Shown here: positions 4,174-37,170 of the stretch, one piece after another
Layout: every line of letters starts with the position of its first letter
Numbering within the stretch: the first letter of the stretch is position 1
Source of the DNA: an uncultured Actinomycetota bacterium
Lineage (GTDB): Bacteria > Actinomycetota > Actinomycetes > S36-B12 > GCA-2699445
NCBI GenBank assembly: GCA_963766005.1
Contig: CAVXYG010000012.1
Coordinates: 17,172-81,171 of the forward strand
DNA: 64,000 nucleotides
Direction: 5' to 3'
Notes under the pieces: model-generated
The model's database searches: none
The model's input: the letters and a program-made list of their open reading frames with translations, nothing else
What the model was told of the DNA's origin: nothing
Position numbers and translations under genes: made by a program

Positions 4174-5823
4174 CTACACCTCCTCCGGCTCCATCACGAT
4201 GGCGCCGGAGGGGCACTCGGCCACGCACAGCCCGCACCCCTTGCAGTAGTCGAGGTCGAAGGCGTAGTCGCGCCCGTTGTCCCCGAGAGCAGAGCCGAGA
4301 TCGAACTTGCGCACCGCGTTGTCCGGGCAGACGCCGAAGCAGTTGTCGCAGTTGAAGCAGTTGCCGCAGCTCAGGCAGCGGCGGGCCTCGAAGAGCGCCG
4401 TGTCCTCGTCGAGGCCCTGCTTCACCTCGTCGAAGCTGGACATCCGGCGAGCCATGTCCAGCCGTGGCCGCATGGTCTTGGGCGCATCGGTGTAGTACCA
4501 GGTGTTGAGCGTCTCGAGACTGGCCAGCAGCGGTCGCGGCGGATGCGCATAGGGGTCACCGCGGAGCCAGCCGTCGATGGTGCGGGCAGCCTGCTTGCCG
4601 TGCCCGACAGCGACGGTGACGGTGCGCTCGCTGGGGACCATGTCGCCCCCGGCGAAGATGCCCTCGACCCCCGTCATCATGTCGGGGCCGACCTGCACCA
4701 CCCCGTCGACCACGTCGATGCCGTCGACGTCCTCGATCAGCGATAGGTCGACGTCCTGGCCGAGGGCGAGCACCAGGGAATCGGCCTCCAGCGTCTCGAC
4801 CTCTCCGGTCGGCTGGGGGAAGCCGGTCTCATCGAGTTCCATGCGCTCGATCGTCAGGGCCCCCTCCTCCGCGGCCGTGATCGTGGACAGCCACTTGATG
4901 AGGACGCCTTCTTCGAGCGCCTCCTGCACCTCGATCTCGTGGGCGGGCATCCGGTCGCGGGTGCGGCGGTAGACCACGATCGCCTCCTCAGCGCCGAGCC
5001 GCTTGGCGGTGCGTGCGACGTCCATCGCCGTGTTGCCGCCGCCGTAGACCGCGACCTTGCGGCCCAGCAGTGGCTGCTCCTCGCCCTCCATCGAGCGTAG
5101 GACGCTCACCGCGTCGAGGATCTTCGCCGATTCGCCCGCCGGAATGTAGGCGCGCTTGCCGATGTGGGCTCCCACGGCGAGGAAGACCGCGTCGAAGCTG
5201 CCCGCCTCCTTGGCGTGCAGGACGTTGTCCACCCGGGTGTTCAGCTTCAACTGGATGCCAAGGTCGAGGATCCGCTGGATCTCGGCGTCGAGCACATCGC
5301 GCGGGAGGCGGTAGGCCGGGATGCCGAACCGCATCATGCCGCCGGGTTTGGGTCCGGCCTCCCAGATCTCGACGGTGTGCCCGAAGCGCTGCAGATGGTA
5401 GGCGGCGCAGAGTCCCGAGGGCCCGGCGCCGATGACCAGCACTCGTTTGCCGGAGGGTTCGCAAGGCGGTGCCGGAGCGGCCCAGCCCTGCTGCAGCGCG
5501 TGGTCGCCCAGGAATTGCTCCACTGAGTTGATGCCGACGGGGTGGTCGATGTGGGCGCGATTGCAGGCGGTCTGGCACGGGTGGTAGCAGACCCGGCCCA
5601 TGATCGCCGGGAACGGGTTGTCGGCCATGATCTGCCGCCATGCCTTCTCGTAGCCACCGGCCTCGGCCTCGTACAGCCAGCCCTGGATGTTCTCGCCGGC
5701 CGGGCAGGCATCGTTGCACGGGGGGAGGCTGTTGCGATACACGGGCCGTTCGGTCCGCCACGTGCCGGTCTTGTTCGCCAGGCTGGATCCGACGTTGAGC
5801 GTGATGGCGAAGGGCTGTTCCAT
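4174..5823 (-). CDS. GltD-like NAD(P)H flavoprotein fused to a 2x[4Fe-4S] ferredoxin (PorD-like) domain
   Basis: ORF 4174..5823, 549 aa. N-terminal Cys clusters (CNDACPAGE, CYHPCQTAC). Dinucleotide fold VLVIGAGPSGLCAA and GGGNTAMD. C-terminus CLSCGNCFNCDNC...CKGCGLCVAECP. Confidence 0.85.
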   Translation of the reverse strand: MEQPFAITLNVGSSLANKTGTWRTERPVYRNSLPPCNDACPAGENIQGWLYEAEAGGYEKAWRQIMADNPFPAIMGRVCYHPCQTACNRAHIDHPVGINSVEQFLGDHALQQGWAAPAPPCEPSGKRVLVIGAGPSGLCAAYHLQRFGHTVEIWEAGPKPGGMMRFGIPAYRLPRDVLDAEIQRILDLGIQLKLNTRVDNVLHAKEAGSFDAVFLAVGAHIGKRAYIPAGESAKILDAVSVLRSMEGEEQPLLGRKVAVYGGGNTAMDVARTAKRLGAEEAIVVYRRTRDRMPAHEIEVQEALEEGVLIKWLSTITAAEEGALTIERMELDETGFPQPTGEVETLEADSLVLALGQDVDLSLIEDVDGIDVVDGVVQVGPDMMTGVEGIFAGGDMVPSERTVTVAVGHGKQAARTIDGWLRGDPYAHPPRPLLASLETLNTWYYTDAPKTMRPRLDMARRMSSFDEVKQGLDEDTALFEARRCLSCGNCFNCDNCFGVCPDNAVRKFDLGSALGDNGRDYAFDLDYCKGCGLCVAECPSGAIVMEPEEV

Positions 5824-6749
5824 CAGGCTGCCCGCCTTTCTGTCAGGTCGTGGGGGAGTCCGACGCGCCAGAGGTCGGCGGCCATGATCCTTCTCAAGCG
5901 GTGCCCGGCCCCGCGCAGGGCGTCCTCGCGGCGCTTCTCGTCCAGGAGGTCGCCGCGGTCCTCGTACTTCACCGCGCCGTCGATCTCCACGATGAGGCGC
6001 CGGTCGGGCCAGTACAGGTCGGCGTAGTAGGTGCGTCCATCGGCGCCGCGGATCGGTCTCCCCACGGCAGGCTCCGGGAAGCCGACCGACAGGAACAATC
6101 CGCGCGCGTACGACTCCGGCGCGGATTCCGCAGCCGGGTTCGCCAGTGCCGCGGCGTACCGGGCGCGGTCGATGCCCCGGACGCAGCGCATCCTGGCAGA
6201 GGTCCTGAGGAGCTCCTCGCGAATGCTGGTGCGAAAGGATGCGGCGAGGGCTTGTCTGCGGGTCGGGCCGGTCAGCCGGCCGTAACTATCGACCGCCACG
6301 AGGCCTTCGGCAAGAGTGGCCCGGGCCGCGATGTCCAGTGCGGTTCGGGCAGGGGAGGTGCATCGGAGCCCCTGGATGATCGCAATGTCCGACTCGTCGA
6401 TCGTGCGCCTGAAGAAGCGGGCCCCCGGCTGCCTGCGGTGGGTCTTGGGTGTCGCCAGTTCGACGATTTGCCATCCGCTGGGCCGGGGGCACCACAGGCC
6501 GTGGATCGCGGCTGCTCCTTCGCCGACAACGATCGCATCGGGGTGTACCAGCGCAGCGGCGCGGACCTTGTCAAGGAAGTCCACTCTGCCCTCGGGGGAC
6601 ACGAGCAAGACGCCCCTGCCGATCCGCGTCAGGCGTTCGGCTGCCACGGCGTGTCGAAGGGCGTCGCGGCTGACACCGGCGGATCTGGCCTGCTGCACGG
6701 TGAACGGGCGGGTTCCGAACTCGGCGGTCAGTGTCTGCATCGTGCTCAT
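5823..6749 (-). CDS. AbiEi_4-like N-terminal domain / DUF559 (Vsr-like endonuclease fold) C-terminal domain protein
   Basis: ATG 6749 (MSTMQTLTAEFG...) within ORF 5823..7526, 308 aa. The C-terminus YYADLYWPDRRLIVEIDGAVKYE...RREDALRGAGHRLRR is typical of DUF559. Its TGA overlaps the ATG of the downstream gene (TGATG at 5825-5821). Confidence 0.75.
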   Translation of the reverse strand: MSTMQTLTAEFGTRPFTVQQARSAGVSRDALRHAVAAERLTRIGRGVLLVSPEGRVDFLDKVRAAALVHPDAIVVGEGAAAIHGLWCPRPSGWQIVELATPKTHRRQPGARFFRRTIDESDIAIIQGLRCTSPARTALDIAARATLAEGLVAVDSYGRLTGPTRRQALAASFRTSIREELLRTSARMRCVRGIDRARYAAALANPAAESAPESYARGLFLSVGFPEPAVGRPIRGADGRTYYADLYWPDRRLIVEIDGAVKYEDRGDLLDEKRREDALRGAGHRLRRIMAADLWRVGLPHDLTERRAA

Positions 6750-6848
6750 GCGAGCGATCCTGGCGCCGGGGTCACCGCCCGCGCCGCACCGTCGTTGGAG
6801 ACGTGGAAGGGCCGGCGTCCTGTGGATGTGGAGGTGTGCACCCGCTGT

Positions 6849-6928
6849 GGGGGTTTGCACCTCATCCGGGGGCGATTTGGGGGGTCTACTGCTCAGCCTT
6901 TGCACCTGGTGTGGGGGTTTGCACCTGG
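6849..6928. repeat. inverted-orientation copies of the GGTGCAAACCCCC core (left arm)
   Basis: GGGGGTTTGCACCTC at 6849-6863 is the exact reverse complement of 6973-6987. Further copies are TTTGCACCTGG at 6899-6909 and GGGGGTTTGCACCTGG at 6913-6928. Confidence 0.9.
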
Positions 6929-6960
6929 TGCGGGGGTGGAATCGCCCCAGATCCGTTCTT

Positions 6961-7525
6961 TGGCCCCCATACGAGGTGCAAACCCCCACACGGGGTGCAG
7001 ACCCGGCGTCCGGATGGGCTCTCTGGCCCCCGCACGAGGTGCATACCCCTGGAAGGGGTGCAGACCCGGCGTCCGGATGGGCTCTCTGGCCCCCGCACGA
7101 GGTGCAAACCCCCACGCGGGGTGCAGACCCGGCGTCCGGATCGGCCCTCTGGCCCCCGCCCGAGGTGCAGACCCCCGCCGGGGTGCAGACCCGGCGTCCG
7201 GATGGGCTCTCTGGCCCCCGCCCGGGGTGCGACCCCCGCCCGGGGTGCAGACCCGGCGTCCGGATCGGCCCGGAGGCCCCCGCCCGGGGTGCCGACCCCC
7301 GCCCGGGGTGCAGACTTCGTGCCGGCGGGGGCTGGCCGCTCCCCGCCCGGGGTGCAAACCCCCACGCGGGGTGCAGACCCGGCGTCCGGATCGGCCCTCT
7401 GCCCCCCGCCCGAGGTGCAAACCCCCGCCCGGGGTGCAGACTCGGCGTCCGGATGGGCCCCGAGGCCCCTGCCCGGGGTGCCGACCCCCGCCCGGGGTGC
7501 GGACCTGGCACCTGGATCCGCCGCA
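6961..7525. repeat. about 9 tandem units of a ~63-bp minisatellite, each carrying two GGTGCARACCCC cores
   Basis: Units start at 6961, 7024, 7087, 7150, 7212, 7274, 7340, 7400 and 7463, with lengths 63, 63, 63, 62, 62, 66, 60, 63 and ~63. Consensus: TGGCCCCCGCACGAGGTGCAAACCCCCACGCGGGGTGCAGACCCGGCGTCCGGATGGGCTCTC. Confidence 0.95.
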
Positions 7526-7634
7526 AGCACCCGGCGACGGCGGCAGACCCCAGCCCGGGGTGCCGGCGCGGCCGGTGGGAGCGCCCAACGGCCCCCGCGC
7601 GCCACAGCTCGAACCCTCCAGCCGGCCGGGCCGC

Positions 7635-8687
7635 TCACGATTGCTGCTCCTGGGCGGCCCGCTGCTCGCGCACCGAGGCCAGCGCGTCGGCGTCCGCGCC
7701 GGCATCCACCAGCCCATACCGCTCGATGTTGGCATCGGCGATCGACTGCAGCGCTGCCACTACCTCGGGCTCGCCCGGTTCGCCGAACAGGTGCGCGTAG
7801 CGCTTCTGCGGCCGCAGGTACTCCTCGACCGGTACTCGACGACGAATCTTGGACACCTCGGTGATCTCCCCGTACGCCGCCTCGAAGACCGGGAACAGCC
7901 CCGACTCCTTCGCCAACCGGGCCAGGCGCACGGTGTCGCGGCTGGCCGAGCCCCAGCCCAGCGGGCACGGCACCAGCACGTGCAGGTAGCGGGCCCCCCG
8001 CACCTGCATCGCCCGTGTCACCTTGTCCTCCAGGTCGCGCAGGTCGGCCACGGTGGCGGTGGCGACGTAGGGGATCTCGTGCGCCATGGCGATCCGCGGG
8101 AGGTTCTTGCCCTGGCCGAACACGTTCCCCGGATGCGCCCCGACGGCCTGCGTCGTCGTGGTGCGCGCCGCCGGCGGGGTGGCCCCGGAGCGCTGCACCC
8201 CGGTATTCATGTACGCCTCGTTGTCGTAGCAGATGTACAGCACATCGTCGTTGCGCTCGAACATCCCGGACAGCGCGCCCATGCCGATGTCGACGGTGCC
8301 GCCGTCCCCGCCCTGCGCCACGACGCGCACGTCATCGCGGCCCCGGGCCTTCAACGCCGCCGCGATCCCGGTCGCCACCGCCGGGGCGTTGCCGAATAGC
8401 GAATGCAGCCACGGCACCTGCCAGGAGGTCTCCGGGTACGGCGTGGAGAAGACTTCCAGGCATCCGGTGGCGTTGGCGACGATGAGCTGGCCGTCGCACG
8501 CACGCATCGCGGCATCGAGCGCGTAGCGCGCCCCGAGCGCCTCGCCGCAGCCCTGGCAGGCACGATGCCCGCTGGTGATGGCGTTCGGTCGGGCCGGATC
8601 GGACTGCGCGCTGAGCACCTCCAAGGGCAGCAGCCGGTTGCCCACGGCGAAGGAGCCGACTTGGTAGAACTTCAGCGCCGAACTCAT
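7635..8687 (-). CDS. 2-oxoacid (pyruvate-type):ferredoxin oxidoreductase, beta (TPP-binding) subunit
   Basis: ORF 7635..8687, 350 aa. CQGCGE Fe-S ligand motif and GGDGGTVDIGMGAL...YDNEAYMNTG TPP-binding motif. Confidence 0.9.
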   Translation of the reverse strand: MSSALKFYQVGSFAVGNRLLPLEVLSAQSDPARPNAITSGHRACQGCGEALGARYALDAAMRACDGQLIVANATGCLEVFSTPYPETSWQVPWLHSLFGNAPAVATGIAAALKARGRDDVRVVAQGGDGGTVDIGMGALSGMFERNDDVLYICYDNEAYMNTGVQRSGATPPAARTTTTQAVGAHPGNVFGQGKNLPRIAMAHEIPYVATATVADLRDLEDKVTRAMQVRGARYLHVLVPCPLGWGSASRDTVRLARLAKESGLFPVFEAAYGEITEVSKIRRRVPVEEYLRPQKRYAHLFGEPGEPEVVAALQSIADANIERYGLVDAGADADALASVREQRAAQEQQS

Positions 8688-9898
8688 CGCGGCCTCCGGT
8701 CGGTGGCCGCGGGGGTGACGGTGCTGCGGCCGGTGCGGGACATCTCCGCCTTCACCAGTTGCGTGTCGAGGTCGAGGAACAGCAGATCGGGCAGCGCCTC
8801 GGCATCGCGGAGTACTTTCAGCAGCGAGTCCTTCGTGATTGGCCGTCCGCCCAGTCCGGCGACCACCGTGTGGAGATTCGCCGTCGGGCCGAGCGCCGCA
8901 CGCACGTCCTGAGTGACGATGCCTCCGACCCCGACGCTGAACGCCTTCTCCAGCATGACGACGCGTCCTGCGCCGGCCAGAGCCTCGGCGACGGCGCGGT
9001 GCGGGAACGGTCGGAACGTCGTGATCCCCAGCACGCCGATCGGAACACCCTGCGCGCGCAGTTCGTCGACGGCGTCCTTGATGGTGCCCAGGACCGAACC
9101 GAGCGCAACGACGACCGTGCGCGCCCCGTCCAGCCGGTAGCCGCGGACCAGCCCTCCGGCGGTCCGGCCGAAGGAGGCTGCGAACTCCGCGGACAGGTCA
9201 GGGATCGTGCGCAGCGACAGCAGATGCCGCCGGTGCGCCAGGTAGCGCACCTCCGTGAACGCCTCCGGCCCGACCATGGCCCCGATGCTGACCGGGTCGG
9301 CCGGGTCGAGCACCTGGCGAGGCTCGAACGCCGGCAGGTACTCGTCCACGGACTCCTGCGGCGGCAGATCCACCTCCTCCATGGCGTGGGTGAGGATGAA
9401 CCCGTCCATGCAGACCATGACCGGCAGCGACAGGGACTCGGCGAGCCGGAACGCCTGGATGTGGAGGTCCGCGGCCTCCTGGTTGTCCTCGGCGTAGAGC
9501 TGGATCCACCCGGAGTCGCGCTGGCTCATCGCGTCGGAGTGGTCGTTCCAGATGTTGATCGGCGCACCGATGGCCCGGTTGGCGACGGTCATGACGATCG
9601 GCAGGCCGAGTCCGGAGGCGTTGTAGACCGCCTCGACCATGAAGAGCAGTCCCTGGGAGGCCGTGGCCGTGTACGCGCGGGCGCCCGTCGCGCTGGCCCC
9701 GATGGCCACCGACATCGCCGCGAACTCGCTCTCCACGTTGACGAACTCGCAGCCCGGCAACTCCCCGGATTTCACGATCCTCGACAGCGACTCCACGATG
9801 TGCGTCTGCGGCGAGATGGGGTAGGCGCAGATCACGTCCGGCCTGGCCAGGGCCACCGCCTGAGCCACGGCCTGGGAACCCTCGATCTGTCGCTTCAC
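8684..9898 (-). CDS. 2-oxoacid:ferredoxin oxidoreductase, alpha subunit
   Basis: ORF 8684..9898, 404 aa. PorA-like N-terminus GSQAVAQAVALARPDVICAYPISPQT...ESEFAAMS. 4-bp overlaps with both neighbouring genes. Confidence 0.9.
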   Translation of the reverse strand: MKRQIEGSQAVAQAVALARPDVICAYPISPQTHIVESLSRIVKSGELPGCEFVNVESEFAAMSVAIGASATGARAYTATASQGLLFMVEAVYNASGLGLPIVMTVANRAIGAPINIWNDHSDAMSQRDSGWIQLYAEDNQEAADLHIQAFRLAESLSLPVMVCMDGFILTHAMEEVDLPPQESVDEYLPAFEPRQVLDPADPVSIGAMVGPEAFTEVRYLAHRRHLLSLRTIPDLSAEFAASFGRTAGGLVRGYRLDGARTVVVALGSVLGTIKDAVDELRAQGVPIGVLGITTFRPFPHRAVAEALAGAGRVVMLEKAFSVGVGGIVTQDVRAALGPTANLHTVVAGLGGRPITKDSLLKVLRDAEALPDLLFLDLDTQLVKAEMSRTGRSTVTPAATDRRPR

Positions 9899-13529: not shown

Positions 13530-14456
13530 TCACGGGAGATCGATGAGTCCGCCCTTGCGCCGGAGCAGCCCGTCGGCCAGGAGTGACGCCAGCGCCCGCT
13601 CCGCCTGGTCCGGCGCATCTGGGTCGAGCGCGCGCCGCTCCACCCAGAGCGCGAGCAGGCGTGCCTCGTGCTGCGGCCCGTGGGCTGCAGCACGCAGCAG
13701 CACACCCCGCGCCTGCCGGTCACTACCTTCGAAGGGCTGTCGCCGCGTGGGCGCCGGGCTGACCGGATGGCCTGCTGCCCGCCATCGACAGGACAGCTGC
13801 AGTGGACACCGTTCGCACGACGGGCTCCGAGCCGTGCACACCAGCGCGCCAAGTTCCATGACGGCGACGCTGAACGTCGGCGCGAGCCCATCTCCGGGCA
13901 GCAGGTCGTCGGCCCTGCTGCGCTCGGCGTGCGTGATCGAGGATGAGGCCGGCGCACCCCGACCCGCAAGCCACCGCTCCTGCACCCGCCGCACGTTCGT
14001 GTCCAGGACCGGCACCGACCTGCCGAAGGCGAAGGCGAGCACCGCGGCGGCGGTGTACTCGCCGATTCCCGGCAGCTCCCGCAGAGCGTCAGCGCGGTCC
14101 GGTACCGAGCCGTTGTGCTCCTCGACGATCGCCCGGGCGGCCGCGTGCAGCCGCATCGCCCGCCGCGGATAGCCCATGCCCTGCCACGCTCGGATGATCT
14201 CGGCGACGGGGGCGGCCGCGAGTCTGGCCGGTGCGGGCCAGCGCTCCATCCACTCGCGCCAGACCGGCTCGACGCGGGAGACCTGCGTCTGCTGCAGCAT
14301 CACCTCGCTGACCAGCACACCCCAGGGCGACCGGTCAGCGTCGCGCCACGGCAGTGATCGGGCATTGGCGGCGTACCAGTCCAGGATCCGACCGACGTCC
14401 TGCGCAGTGCTGATGTCGATACCCTCCGTGTCGTGGACGGGGCTGGTGTTCGGCAC
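13530..14456 (-). CDS. mutY: A/G-specific adenine DNA glycosylase
   Basis: GTG 14456 in ORF 13530..14936, 308 aa. LPWR...PWGVLVSEVMLQQTQV, HhH-GPD region LPGIGEYTAAAV, Fe-S cluster loop C-X6-C-X2-C-X5-C (CTARSPSCERCPLQLSC). The start position is uncertain. Confidence 0.85.
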   Translation of the reverse strand: MPNTSPVHDTEGIDISTAQDVGRILDWYAANARSLPWRDADRSPWGVLVSEVMLQQTQVSRVEPVWREWMERWPAPARLAAAPVAEIIRAWQGMGYPRRAMRLHAAARAIVEEHNGSVPDRADALRELPGIGEYTAAAVLAFAFGRSVPVLDTNVRRVQERWLAGRGAPASSSITHAERSRADDLLPGDGLAPTFSVAVMELGALVCTARSPSCERCPLQLSCRWRAAGHPVSPAPTRRQPFEGSDRQARGVLLRAAAHGPQHEARLLALWVERRALDPDAPDQAERALASLLADGLLRRKGGLIDLP

Positions 14457-19618: not shown

Positions 19619-19689
19619 GCAGATCGCAGGGCCCGCGGCCTTGGGCGGATGAGCCGAGGTGGCGCCCCCAGCCCTGCCCGGCCACCATC

Positions 19690-19784
19690 GGCGGCCCGGC
19701 GGCCCGGCGGCCCGGCGGGCCCGGCGGCCCGGCGGCCCGGCGGCCCGGCGGCCCGGCGGCCCGGCGGCCCGGCGGCCCGGCGGC
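19690..19784. repeat. 8-bp microsatellite (GGCGGCCC), about 11.75 copies including one 9-bp variant
   Basis: Read directly: three 8-bp units, one GGCGGGCCC, seven more units, then a partial GGCGGC. Intergenic between the TetR stop (19618) and the proline dehydrogenase start (19917). Confidence 0.95.
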
Positions 19785-19916
19785 TACACCCGCTGTCGCC
19801 CGGGTGGACGGAAACCGGGATCATGGGAACGGTCGAGCGATGTCGGAGCCGACCGCGTAGCCTGATCCCGATGATCATTGCGCCGTCCTGAGGTCGGCGG
19901 CCGTGAGGAGGTCGAC

Positions 19917-35351: not shown

Positions 35352-35762
35352 CAGCTCCGGGCTGTCGGGGATGCCCAGACGTCTGGAGCGGGCCTCGCCG
35401 TAGGTTTGGGCGGGGCCGATCCGGGGCATGCTCAGGGTGTCCGCAGAACTCCCCGACAGGGCCCGCGATTCGGAGCCCAAGGGGATCGAGCTCGGATCCT
35501 CGGCCAGCCGCCGAGGCTGGAGAATTGGCTCGTCCGTTTGGCCATGTGTGGAACGGACTTCGAGGTCAGCCCTTCGGGGGTTGGGTTGACCGGTGCCCGG
35601 GCCGTCCTGGAGGCGGTCCGGGTTTCTCTGGCGCCCCGAGACTCCGGTGGCCTTCCCCTCGCCCCGTGACATTGCTCACCACGTATCGGCTTGCGCTCAG
35701 GCAGCGCCGTCTGGTCACACTGGAATCCCATGCACGTCTCAGATGTGTCACAAGGAGTTCCT

Positions 35763-36458
35763 GTGAAGGTGAGAATCCTGGCCATGGCCGGTGCTGCCGG
35801 AGTCCTGGCCGCGGTGACGCTGGTCGTTGCCCAGCCGGCGGCGGAGACGACGACCGCGCTCATGCCCGACACCGCGCCCCGAGCGGTGGCAGCGATCGAG
35901 CTGGAACTGAACGCGGTCGAGCGGGAAGCCGCCCGGGTCGCAGCGGAGGCCTCGCGCCGGGAGGTGCCGGCGGTGCTGGCCGAGCGCGAGGAAGCGCGCC
36001 GAGTCGAGCAGGAGCAGGCGCGCGCCGCGGCGGAGGCCAAGGCGCGGCAGGAGGCGGAGGCGAAGGCGGCGGCTGAGGCGAAGGCGGCGGCTGAGGCCGA
36101 GGCCAAGGCCGCGGCGCCGGCGGCCCCGTCGACGGGGCGTCCCACGAACGACTACGGGATCGCGGGCAGCGCCTACACCGGGCCGATGTACAACGCGGGC
36201 TCGGAGTCCACGCGCAAGTGCATCGTGGCCAAGGAGTCCGGCGGCAACTACGGGATCGTGTCGAGCAACGGCCGGTACCACGGGGCGTACCAGTTCTCGC
36301 GTCCGACCGGCGATGCCACCGCCCAGCGGATGGGCCGGGCGGATCTCGTGGGCACCCCGGTGAGCCAGTGGAGCCGCTACGAGCAGGACATGGCGTTCTG
36401 GACGCTGTGGAACAACGGTGCTGGGCGGGGCAACTGGCCAACCGCGGCGGGCTGCTGA
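35763..36458 (+). CDS. secreted protein with Ala/Glu/Lys-rich linker and C-terminal Rpf/Apf-like transglycosylase-like (lysozyme-fold) domain
   Basis: GTG 35763 preceded by AAGGAG, 231 aa. Signal peptide VKVRILAMAGAAGVLAAVTLVVAQPAA. C-terminal C..ESGGNYG...G.YQFS....W...C pattern. Confidence 0.75.
   Translation: MKVRILAMAGAAGVLAAVTLVVAQPAAETTTALMPDTAPRAVAAIELELNAVEREAARVAAEASRREVPAVLAEREEARRVEQEQARAAAEAKARQEAEAKAAAEAKAAAEAEAKAAAPAAPSTGRPTNDYGIAGSAYTGPMYNAGSESTRKCIVAKESGGNYGIVSSNGRYHGAYQFSRPTGDATAQRMGRADLVGTPVSQWSRYEQDMAFWTLWNNGAGRGNWPTAAGC
36105..36458 (+). repeat. 354-bp direct repeat, copy 1 (3' end of the first Rpf-like gene)
   Basis: Identical to 36817..37170 at an offset of 712 bp, apart from one synonymous difference (T at 36420 versus C at 37132). 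Confidence 0.9.
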
Positions 36459-36587: not shown

Positions 36588-37170
36588 ATGATGAAGCGCA
36601 CTGGAGCCGCTGCCGGTGTTGCGGTGCTGCTGGCCTCATCGCTGGCCCTGGCCGCCGGCGCGCAGGCCGACCCGGCCATGAACATCAGCCGCAACGCGAT
36701 GGTCGTGGACAGCGTCAGCGCATTCGTCGCCGCTGAGGACGTGCGGATCGCGGCTGAGGCGAAGGCGCGTGCGGAGGCGGAGGCGGAGGCGGCAGGCGAA
36801 GGCGGCGGCTGAGGCCAAGGCCGCGGCGCCGGCGGCCCCGTCGACGGGGCGTCCCACGAACGACTACGGGATCGCGGGCAGCGCCTACACCGGGCCGATG
36901 TACAACGCGGGCTCGGAGTCCACGCGCAAGTGCATCGTGGCCAAGGAGTCCGGCGGCAACTACGGGATCGTGTCGAGCAACGGCCGGTACCACGGGGCGT
37001 ACCAGTTCTCGCGTCCGACCGGCGATGCCACCGCCCAGCGGATGGGCCGGGCGGATCTCGTGGGCACCCCGGTGAGCCAGTGGAGCCGCTACGAGCAGGA
37101 CATGGCGTTCTGGACGCTGTGGAACAACGGTGCCGGGCGGGGCAACTGGCCAACCGCGGCGGGCTGCTGA
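36588..37170 (+). pseudogene. second Rpf/Apf-like secreted protein gene, interrupted by a +1 frameshift
   Basis: ATG 36588 (MMKRTGAAAGVAVLLASSLALAAGAQA signal peptide) runs into TGA at 36810-36812. The catalytic-domain frame (ORF 36769..37170) is +1. The break lies near 36792-36796, inside a GCGGAG/GCGAAG codon repeat. Confidence 0.65.
36817..37170 (+). repeat. 354-bp direct repeat, copy 2
   Basis: See copy 1. 353 of 354 positions are identical by eye. Confidence 0.9.

Follow-up and report, generated by a model that had tools for sequence, protein, structure and literature searches.

A 63-bp tandem array in an oxidoreductase operon and a dispersed family of two-armed repeats in uncultured Actinomycetota

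Introduction

Why does a metabolic operon of an uncultured actinobacterium carry, between two of its genes, a tandem array of 63-bp units that faces inverted copies of the same unit? The question is raised by a stretch of 64,000 nt (contig CAVXYG010000012.1; hereafter the window, meaning the whole stretch that was analysed, on which all coordinates are based unless another locus is named). The array lies on the minus strand between the gene for the beta subunit of a 2-oxoacid:ferredoxin oxidoreductase (porB) and a gene for an AbiEi-like (DUF559) protein, and this placement, already given in a preliminary description of the DNA, is correct. That description regarded the array as a minisatellite of the kind known as mycobacterial interspersed repetitive units (MIRUs), with an inverted left arm at its side, and also compared it with REP (repetitive extragenic palindromic) sequences and the bacterial interspersed mosaic elements (BIMEs). 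Proteobacteria are the hosts in which REPs, BIMEs and the hairpin-forming REP doublets called REPINs are known best, and REP-associated tyrosine transposases (RAYTs) are bound up with the biology of these repeats. Here the array was compared with related genomes. The repeat is a new, architecturally distinct REP/BIME-like family, and the segment 6837-7600 is probably one copy of this dispersed, non-coding, two-armed palindromic family of an uncultured Actinomycetota lineage.

Structure of the array in the window

Tandem Repeats Finder places the array at 6957-7509, with a period of 63, 8.8 copies, 83% matches and a score of 684. The unit listing agrees with the nine unit starts and the unit lengths given before, the lengths being 63, 63, 63, 62, 62, 66, 60, 63 and 63 bp in order. 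The double-core pattern TGCACCC-N7-GGSTY-TGCACC, with up to two mismatches, matches nine times in the window, all inside 6837-7501, whereas 0.03 matches are expected from shuffled windows; nothing similar is found elsewhere in the 64 kb, even with three mismatches allowed. Repeat finder, unit listing and pattern matches (at 6975, 7038, 7101, 7288, 7351, 7414 and 7477 of the minus strand) together define an expanded arm of nine 60-66-bp units at 6957-7525 on the minus strand. On that strand, each unit is made of TCTGCACCCC-loop-GGGGGTTTGCACCTC-loop-GGGGGCC and a linker of about 25 nt (CAGAGAGCCCATCCGGACGCCGG). What is repeated is the whole 63-bp unit, linker included, and not a constant repeat separated by unique spacers as in a CRISPR array. 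A tenth, decayed outer unit lies at about 7526-7600 of the minus strand, where the pattern matches a core at 7540-7564 with three mismatches and a Tandem Repeats Finder row of period 126 reaches 7595; thus, the array ends only about 35 nt from the porB stop codon. Eighteen cores had been counted in the array. They are there as degenerate versions, but the strict core GGTGCARACCCC matches only five forward and two reverse sites, and four decayed cores of the expanded arm have no TGCA at all (GGTGCCGACC twice, GGTGCGACC and GGTGCGGACC).

On the left side, the three inverted cores of the preliminary description turned out to be four, and they form two double-core units on the plus strand. The inner unit at 6901-6937 reads TGCACCTGGTGTGGGGGTTTGCACCTGGTGCGGGGGT, with one mismatch to the pattern; the outer unit at 6837-6873 reads TGCACCCGCTGTGGGGGTTTGCACCTCATCCGGGGGC, without mismatch, and is kept at the orthologous position in six lineages. 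The repeat finder gives the same two inverted units as 6833-6873 and 6901-6936, about 64 bp apart. That 6849-6863 is the exact reverse complement of 6973-6987, as was pointed out before, also holds. The junction of the two arms lies at 6938-6956. In gene orientation, the last expanded-arm unit and the first short-arm unit start 74 bp apart and the following step is 64 bp, which is close to the 63/74/63 standard of the family when compared with 37 standard copies. The inverted left arm is no separate feature; it is simply the other half of a two-armed element. The window array is one arm of such an element grown to about ten units, and it is the largest array seen.

A dispersed family of two-armed elements

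Species-representative genomes were scanned with the double-core pattern, and the matched DNA was compared as 8-kb blocks. At least 117 stretches carry the pattern. At least 65 blocks with the element come from CAVPOB01, a metagenome-assembled genome (MAG) of 19 contigs and about 3.3 Mb summed to which locus L001 belongs, and at least 20 come from CAZECO01, another MAG, which contains L004; at least 32 further hits, in other genomes, are single matches. In the standard element, two forward units lie 63 bp from each other and are followed, after a step of 74 bp, by two reverse units with the same 63-bp spacing; the total length is about 250 bp, and exactly this 2+2 geometry is found at at least 44 loci. 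When a fourth unit seemed to be missing, it was in five of 12 cases just one mismatch off the pattern. The typical and ancestral state is a palindrome of about 250 bp with 2+2 units and without the small open reading frames (ORFs) of MIRUs, so that the name "MIRU-like minisatellite" has to be given up.

The copies are intergenic. According to crude gene calls based on the G+C content of third codon positions (GC3), 21 sites lie between convergent genes, 29 between co-directional genes and four between divergent ones. The neighbours are housekeeping genes, for example those for SecY, Adk and ABC transporters. An all-against-all blastp comparison of 293 flanking ORFs gave only housekeeping families and no recurrent gene family beside the copies, and no transposase is among the Pfam families shared by 145 flanking ORFs, a comparison that covers families matched by more than one ORF. 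The view that the unit comes from no catalogued family has been borne out: Rfam gave only chance-level matches in the window region (E of 0.13 or worse) and no family overlapping the elements at 17 family loci, the phage and plasmid collections had no match to the repeat, and four single pattern matches in viral contigs are taken as chance. Also in the literature, no actinobacterial repeat family of this kind was found.

Several contigs tell more about the elements. In two other Actinomycetota MAGs, CAVOZV01 (L101, 3088-3200) and UBA1383 (L022, 5293-5400), there is one forward and one reverse unit with 6-8 nt between them. This minimal 1+1 version looks like a hairpin doublet of the REPIN style and may be the ancestral form. 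Short-read contigs of L160, L161, L043, L057, L076 and L035 begin or end inside or beside the element. Such breaks fit a high-copy repeat that interrupts assemblies, and they set a limit on what metagenome contigs show. At L039 (about 1150-1600), the synteny with the window at about 31000 stops exactly at the family element of L039, which hints that family elements may mark rearrangement breakpoints; for the same reason, L039 and the window were uninformative when tried as a pair of empty and filled sites.

Core constraint and arm pairing

If the copies belong to one family, which part of them is kept? The consensus of 326 units is TGCACCCG-N3/4-(C)GGGGG-TT-TGCACCCG-N3-CGGGGGC, to which a variable linker of about 23-25 nt is attached. 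In other words, the 63-bp unit is made of two 19-bp sub-repeats, each having TGCACCC(G)-3/4 nt-(C)GGGGG as its core, and the linker. Among these units, positions left free by the search pattern are 86-99% conserved; the loops are near random and the linker is variable. The invariant tetranucleotide is TGCA. In CAVPOB01, the copies are old: identity reaches 90% for the most similar pair and is 77-85% for typical pairs. Nearly all cores are intact nonetheless.

The two arms do not follow each other in the same manner. Where sites vary, the match between the opposite arms of an element is 0.44, compared with 0.49 for random pairs, whereas that between units of the same arm is 0.66, compared with 0.43 for random pairs. 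Opposite arms are not complementary beyond the cores, and thus nothing maintains a long hairpin outside them. Long-range pairing or a cruciform under selection, which the preliminary description had considered, is not supported by this test and was rejected. There are two sequence types of arms, with 31 elements having unlike arms and 19 having like arms, and both genomic orientations occur.

Expansion, turnover and genome-specific variants

Growth of one arm is not special to the window. Arrays of period 63 are also found at L085 (7.8 copies, 97% identity), L068 (6.9 copies), and L041, L075 and L095 (4.7 copies each), and several loci have 3-5 units; the window array, with 8.8 copies at 83% identity, is at the top of the family. 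Arm expansion is a recurrent habit of the family, other copies having grown on one arm by 4 to 8 units. Comparisons between the two MAGs show that presence varies as well: L030 has an empty intergenic site of 60 bp where L085 has 1.08 kb with 8+2 units, and the pairs L119/L115 and L112/L125 have occupied sites in common. Unrelated short tandem repeats were seen beside elements, namely GCGGGCGTCCGGGGGT (about six times) and GTCTGCGTCCGTG (four times) at L001 (5400-5610), and GTGCAGACATGCCCG (four times) and CTCGACCCG (three times) at L085 (6740-6890). Intergenic sites that hold the element seem prone to repeat growth.

The copies of CAZECO01 hardly differ from one another, and 35 of the 37 units carry the core variant GGGGCTTTGCACCC with GGTAGA or TGTGTT as lead-in. 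The same variant is found in the old CAZECO01 copy at the site between the por and AbiEi-like genes, and also in L161. This concerted change of cores within a genome points to gene conversion or, as with REPs and RAYTs, to co-evolution with a core-reading protein.

The same site in other lineages

On the minus strand, the gene order around the repeat is alpha subunit, beta subunit, repeat, AbiEi-like gene, and a gene for a GltD/PorD fusion protein. The oxidoreductase alpha subunit is encoded at 8684-9898 (Pfam POR_N, PFOR_II) and the thiamine pyrophosphate-binding beta subunit, upstream of the repeat, at 7635-8687 (Pfam TPP_enzyme_C), both on the minus strand. The AbiEi-like gene, on the same strand at 5823-6749, encodes 308 amino acids (aa) with an AbiEi_4 winged helix-turn-helix (wHTH) domain, an AbiEi_1 domain (both Pfam) and a C-terminal PD-(D/E)xK nuclease-like domain. 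A profile of this protein and its orthologues matches the catalytic PD-(D/E)xK domain of the restriction endonuclease PvuRts1I with E of 7e-4, and the residues D244, E255, D257 and K261, which are putatively catalytic, do not vary. The stop codon of the AbiEi-like gene overlaps, as ATGA, the start codon of the minus-strand gene at 4174-5823 for a GltD-like NAD(P)-binding Fe-S flavoprotein that has a PorD-like ferredoxin domain at its C-terminus (Pfam; NCBIfam PRK12771, PorD_KorD). The gene downstream of the AbiEi-like gene is thus an oxidoreductase, and there is no AbiEii toxin partner. The 87-nt spacer from the last core to the start codon of the AbiEi-like gene (6750-6836, minus strand) presumably holds the promoter and the 5' untranslated region of that gene; a sigma-70 consensus was sought in the spacer and none was found. 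As for the host, the closest named relatives of the ClpC protein of the window are from MAGs labelled Candidatus Nanopelagicales, at 86-90% identity.

Orthologous loci were retrieved via the AbiEi-like protein and are hence free of selection bias from the core pattern. The order porGAB, intergenic region, AbiEi-like gene and oxidoreductase is kept in L001-L008 and L160-L163, down to 57% protein identity, and no lineage of at least 58% protein identity lacks the double-core motif in the intergenic region. L001, L002 and L161 carry 2+2 forward and reverse units at this site, L005 has 1+2, the contig of L160 begins within the reverse arm, and the window has about 10+2, so that the forward units number from 1 to about 10 across lineages. 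Four lineages have 87-92 nt from the last core to the AbiEi-like start codon, and two others have a similar distance. When six orthologous upstream regions are aligned, the runs of invariant columns coincide with the GGTGCA cores. At L008 and L163, where the orthologues are 57% identical, the gene is kept and only decayed relics of the element are left upstream. The window copy is thus an old resident of this site, common to six lineages.

Other repeats in the window

Two more repeats were noticed in the window. One is a near-perfect 8-bp tandem repeat of CGGCGGCC at 19689-19784 (11.9 copies, 97% matches), about 90 nt upstream of an ORF starting at 19875. The other consists of two blocks, 36016-36115 and 36749-36828, of GGCGGA/GGCGAA hexamers and 18-24-bp repeats; the first block, inside a GC3-supported ORF (35670-36458), is probably a coding repeat of low complexity.

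Proposed mechanism

How could such an element work? It is proposed that it would act via its cores rather than via long-range pairing. The near-invariant cores, the drifting loops and linkers, the non-complementary arms and the genome-specific core variants argue for recognition by a trans-acting protein, and the cores would most likely be the sites of a genome-encoded DNA-binding or DNA-processing protein. That protein may copy or maintain the family, as RAYT transposases do for REP and REPIN elements. Since 63 bp correspond to six helical turns, successive cores would be displayed on one face of the DNA. The arms may grow by slipped-strand mispairing or unequal recombination between the 63-bp units; after such growth, the window units would have drifted to 83% identity and the outer ones lost their cores. 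In the operon transcript, the element would form a very stable G+C-rich block, which could uncouple porGAB from the two downstream genes.

There is a slim chance that the cognate enzyme of the family is the adjacent AbiEi wHTH-nuclease protein itself, with the TGCACCC cores as the sites that it would recognise and the nicking, copying or maintenance of the elements as its task. If this is true, the two would form a partnership like that of REPINs and RAYTs built on a wholly different enzyme class, and the abundant actinobacterial AbiEi-DUF559 proteins would obtain a function.

Some points weigh against the segment 6837-7600 being a copy of a dispersed family with a protein acting in trans. No trans-acting protein was found in a weak tblastn search of the family loci and the window with IS200 TnpA and RAYT queries; the only IS200/RAYT match in the window, at 13692-13787, is inside a MutY-looking ORF and was rejected as chance. 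Dispersal is shown for related genomes, which have dozens of copies, and not for the genome of the window, which shows a single copy in 64 kb. The orientation bias of the copies depends on the crude GC3 gene calls, and the unit logo is partly biased by the pattern with which the units were collected. In 60 elements, no 5-nt direct repeat is enriched at any pair of offsets up to 130 nt from the ends, so that a target-site duplication is not seen. Sharp ends are also not seen, as alignments between copies fade about 15 nt past the outer cores or enter decayed extra units. Finally, this copy could have a local regulatory role, as its place about 88 nt upstream of a gene for a DNA-binding protein is conserved in six lineages.

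Alternative explanations

This last point leads to the explanation that came first, from the motif at the orthologous loci. The adjacent AbiEi-like wHTH protein would bind the TGCACCC cores in front of its gene, which would serve as its operator or for its titration, and would so autoregulate the AbiEi-oxidoreductase pair; extra units would tune or buffer the repression. AbiEi antitoxins act on inverted repeats to repress the promoters from which they are expressed. The gene here has both AbiEi_4 and AbiEi_1 domains, it is preceded at a nearly fixed distance by two inverted double-core units, and residues of the recognition helix differ between lineages with G-type and C-type cores, although this comparison covers two clades only. 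However, tblastn found no AbiEi homologue near the other copies, in at least 85 blocks of the two MAGs, and the operator was dropped as the main explanation for this reason. Other orthologous sites also retain copies, so that the conserved position is not special to the AbiEi-like gene; L008 and L163 keep the gene with mere relics of the element; the toxin partner is missing; and a search of metagenomes for more orthologous loci gave only 33 distant AbiEi/DUF559 paralogues at 27-51% identity, none of them with a double-core unit nearby. We therefore regard an operator array as unlikely.

A similarly low probability is assigned to the element being a MITE (miniature inverted-repeat transposable element), that is, an internally deleted DDE transposon whose ends have several direct transposase sites, as in Tn7, Mu or IS21, and which is mobilised in trans by a full-length element. 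A layout in which one arm has n direct sites and the opposite arm m inverted ones fits this. The cores start with TG and finish with CA, the outermost unit of one arm is an inverted copy of that of the other, like the terminal inverted repeats of MITEs, presence differs among related genomes, and the near-identical CAZECO01 copies break short-read contigs. Against this stand the lack, in the 60 elements, of a target-site duplication at any fixed offset up to 130 nt from the ends, the fuzzy ends with decayed extra units, and the flanking ORFs described above, which show neither a recurrent gene family nor a shared transposase family. Moreover, the CAVPOB01 copies are old, with 90% identity at best, yet their cores are intact.

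It is also rather improbable that the element acts mainly as RNA, as a bidirectional hairpin terminator or a stabiliser of 3' ends that is selected as a structure. The predicted folds are very stable, at -478 kcal/mol and z = -5.4 for the 771-nt window segment and z = -9.6 for a standard copy, and the copies are enriched downstream of genes, with 21 convergent and 4 divergent contexts. Each 19-nt sub-repeat can form a CCCG/CGGG stem of at most 4 bp around its variable 3-4-nt loop, and the loop-closing positions have a G-T combination in 82 of 375 units, which in RNA would still pair as G-U. However, the arms are without compensatory change outside the cores, and covariation of the mini-hairpins was likewise rejected, as the 4-bp stems have no double compensatory changes. 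No U-tract terminator was found, no Rfam family matches, and some copies lie between divergent genes, for example at L085.

That the array is a coding repeat, extending the N-terminus of the AbiEi-like protein, or an artefact of assembly is very improbable: although the minus-strand ORF 5823-7526 is open through the entire array in frame with the AbiEi-like gene, and although repeats are prone to misassembly, the unit lengths are not multiples of three, several frames stay open on both strands in this DNA of 70.6% G+C, the units differ (83% identity) unlike those of a stuttered assembly, and independent assemblies show like arrays. In addition, 14 orthologues of the AbiEi-like protein (51-100% identity) align from one Met at 304-317 aa, except for one 336-aa call with an unaligned N-terminal extension; none of them has an N-terminal 21-aa repeat, and the unit number varies by lineage. 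The earlier opinion that the array is non-coding is thus supported, as is the view that the 21-aa periodicity of its long ORFs is a by-product of the repeat and that such ORFs are not genes.

Significance

A dispersed family of two-armed elements, to which we assign the window array, shares its population behaviour with REPs: it has many copies, persistence at orthologous sites, conserved cores and genome-specific core variants. New are the uncultured actinobacterial lineage and the architecture, with 63-bp double-core direct repeats in two opposed and often expanding arms. That no RAYT was found in the weak search of the family loci and the window may imply another protein partner, and the core is a concrete motif for seeking it. 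There are also practical consequences. The elements break short-read assemblies of their host lineage and create long ORFs with a 21-aa periodicity that are not genes, and expanded arms like that of the window are candidates for length-variable markers.

Comparison with known repeat systems

MIRUs, reportedly described by Supply et al. in 1997, are tandem units of 46-101 bp in actinobacterial operons, with a copy number that varies by lineage, and the window array has both features. MIRUs have no inverted arm, and they carry small ORFs whose ends overlap the flanking genes, whereas here no frame is kept, gaps of about 35 nt and 87 nt separate the array from the upstream and the downstream gene, respectively, and the typical state is 2+2 units instead of an array. 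AbiEi operators are inverted repeats in abiE promoters. The inverted repeats upstream of an AbiEi-type wHTH gene are similar to them, but here the repeats are dispersed over the genome away from AbiEi genes and there is no AbiEii toxin; furthermore, the protein differs from AbiEi antitoxins in its PD-(D/E)xK nuclease-like C-terminal domain and in its place inside a metabolic operon.

With MITEs (PMC3184786), the family has in common that the elements are non-coding, about 250 bp long and inverted at their ends, that their presence differs among related genomes, and that the copies of CAZECO01 are near-identical. Differences are the lack of a target-site duplication, of sharp termini and of a parent transposon in what was seen here, and an internal structure that consists entirely of repeated sites. 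REPINs with their RAYTs (PMC3116915; PMC5581495) are similar in being inverted doublets able to form a hairpin, in having tens to hundreds of copies per genome, in persisting at orthologous sites, and in their genome-specific sequence variants, which suggest co-evolution with a single-copy enzyme encoded by the host. However, each half is here a tandem pair or array of double-core units, and the arms, though folding stably, are non-complementary outside the cores, unlike the maintained hairpin pairing of REPINs.

The analogy with REPs and BIMEs, already drawn in the preliminary description, is apt, since the unit belongs to a high-copy, dispersed, intergenic family. Some clusters of BIME-2 are amplified in tandem, which is reminiscent of the expanded arms. 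The cognate RAYT of REPs and REPINs, a Y1 HUH transposase, is encoded by a single-copy gene with repeats on either side; no RAYT was found here by the weak tblastn search of the family loci and the window. A 63-bp module of two 19-bp sub-repeats differs from the imperfect palindrome of 20-40 nt that makes up a REP. In BIMEs, the orientation alternates with each REP (PMC2817692), whereas here the repeats are direct within an arm and there is one switch at the centre of the element. REPs are tagged at one end of their palindrome with GTAG or CGTC (PMC3733652), and the conserved tetranucleotide here is TGCA; the same survey does not mention Actinobacteria, and the host here is an actinobacterium. 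Against these differences stand clear likenesses to REPs and BIMEs (PMC3333891; PMC2817692). Both are high-copy, G+C-rich, extragenic and scarce between divergent genes, both have conserved cores and variable linkers, and both form composite clusters in which two kinds of repeats face each other, as the Y and Z REPs do. The copy number of REPs, tens to hundreds per genome at extragenic places, is also reached in the relatives of the window genome, with at least 65 and at least 20 blocks.

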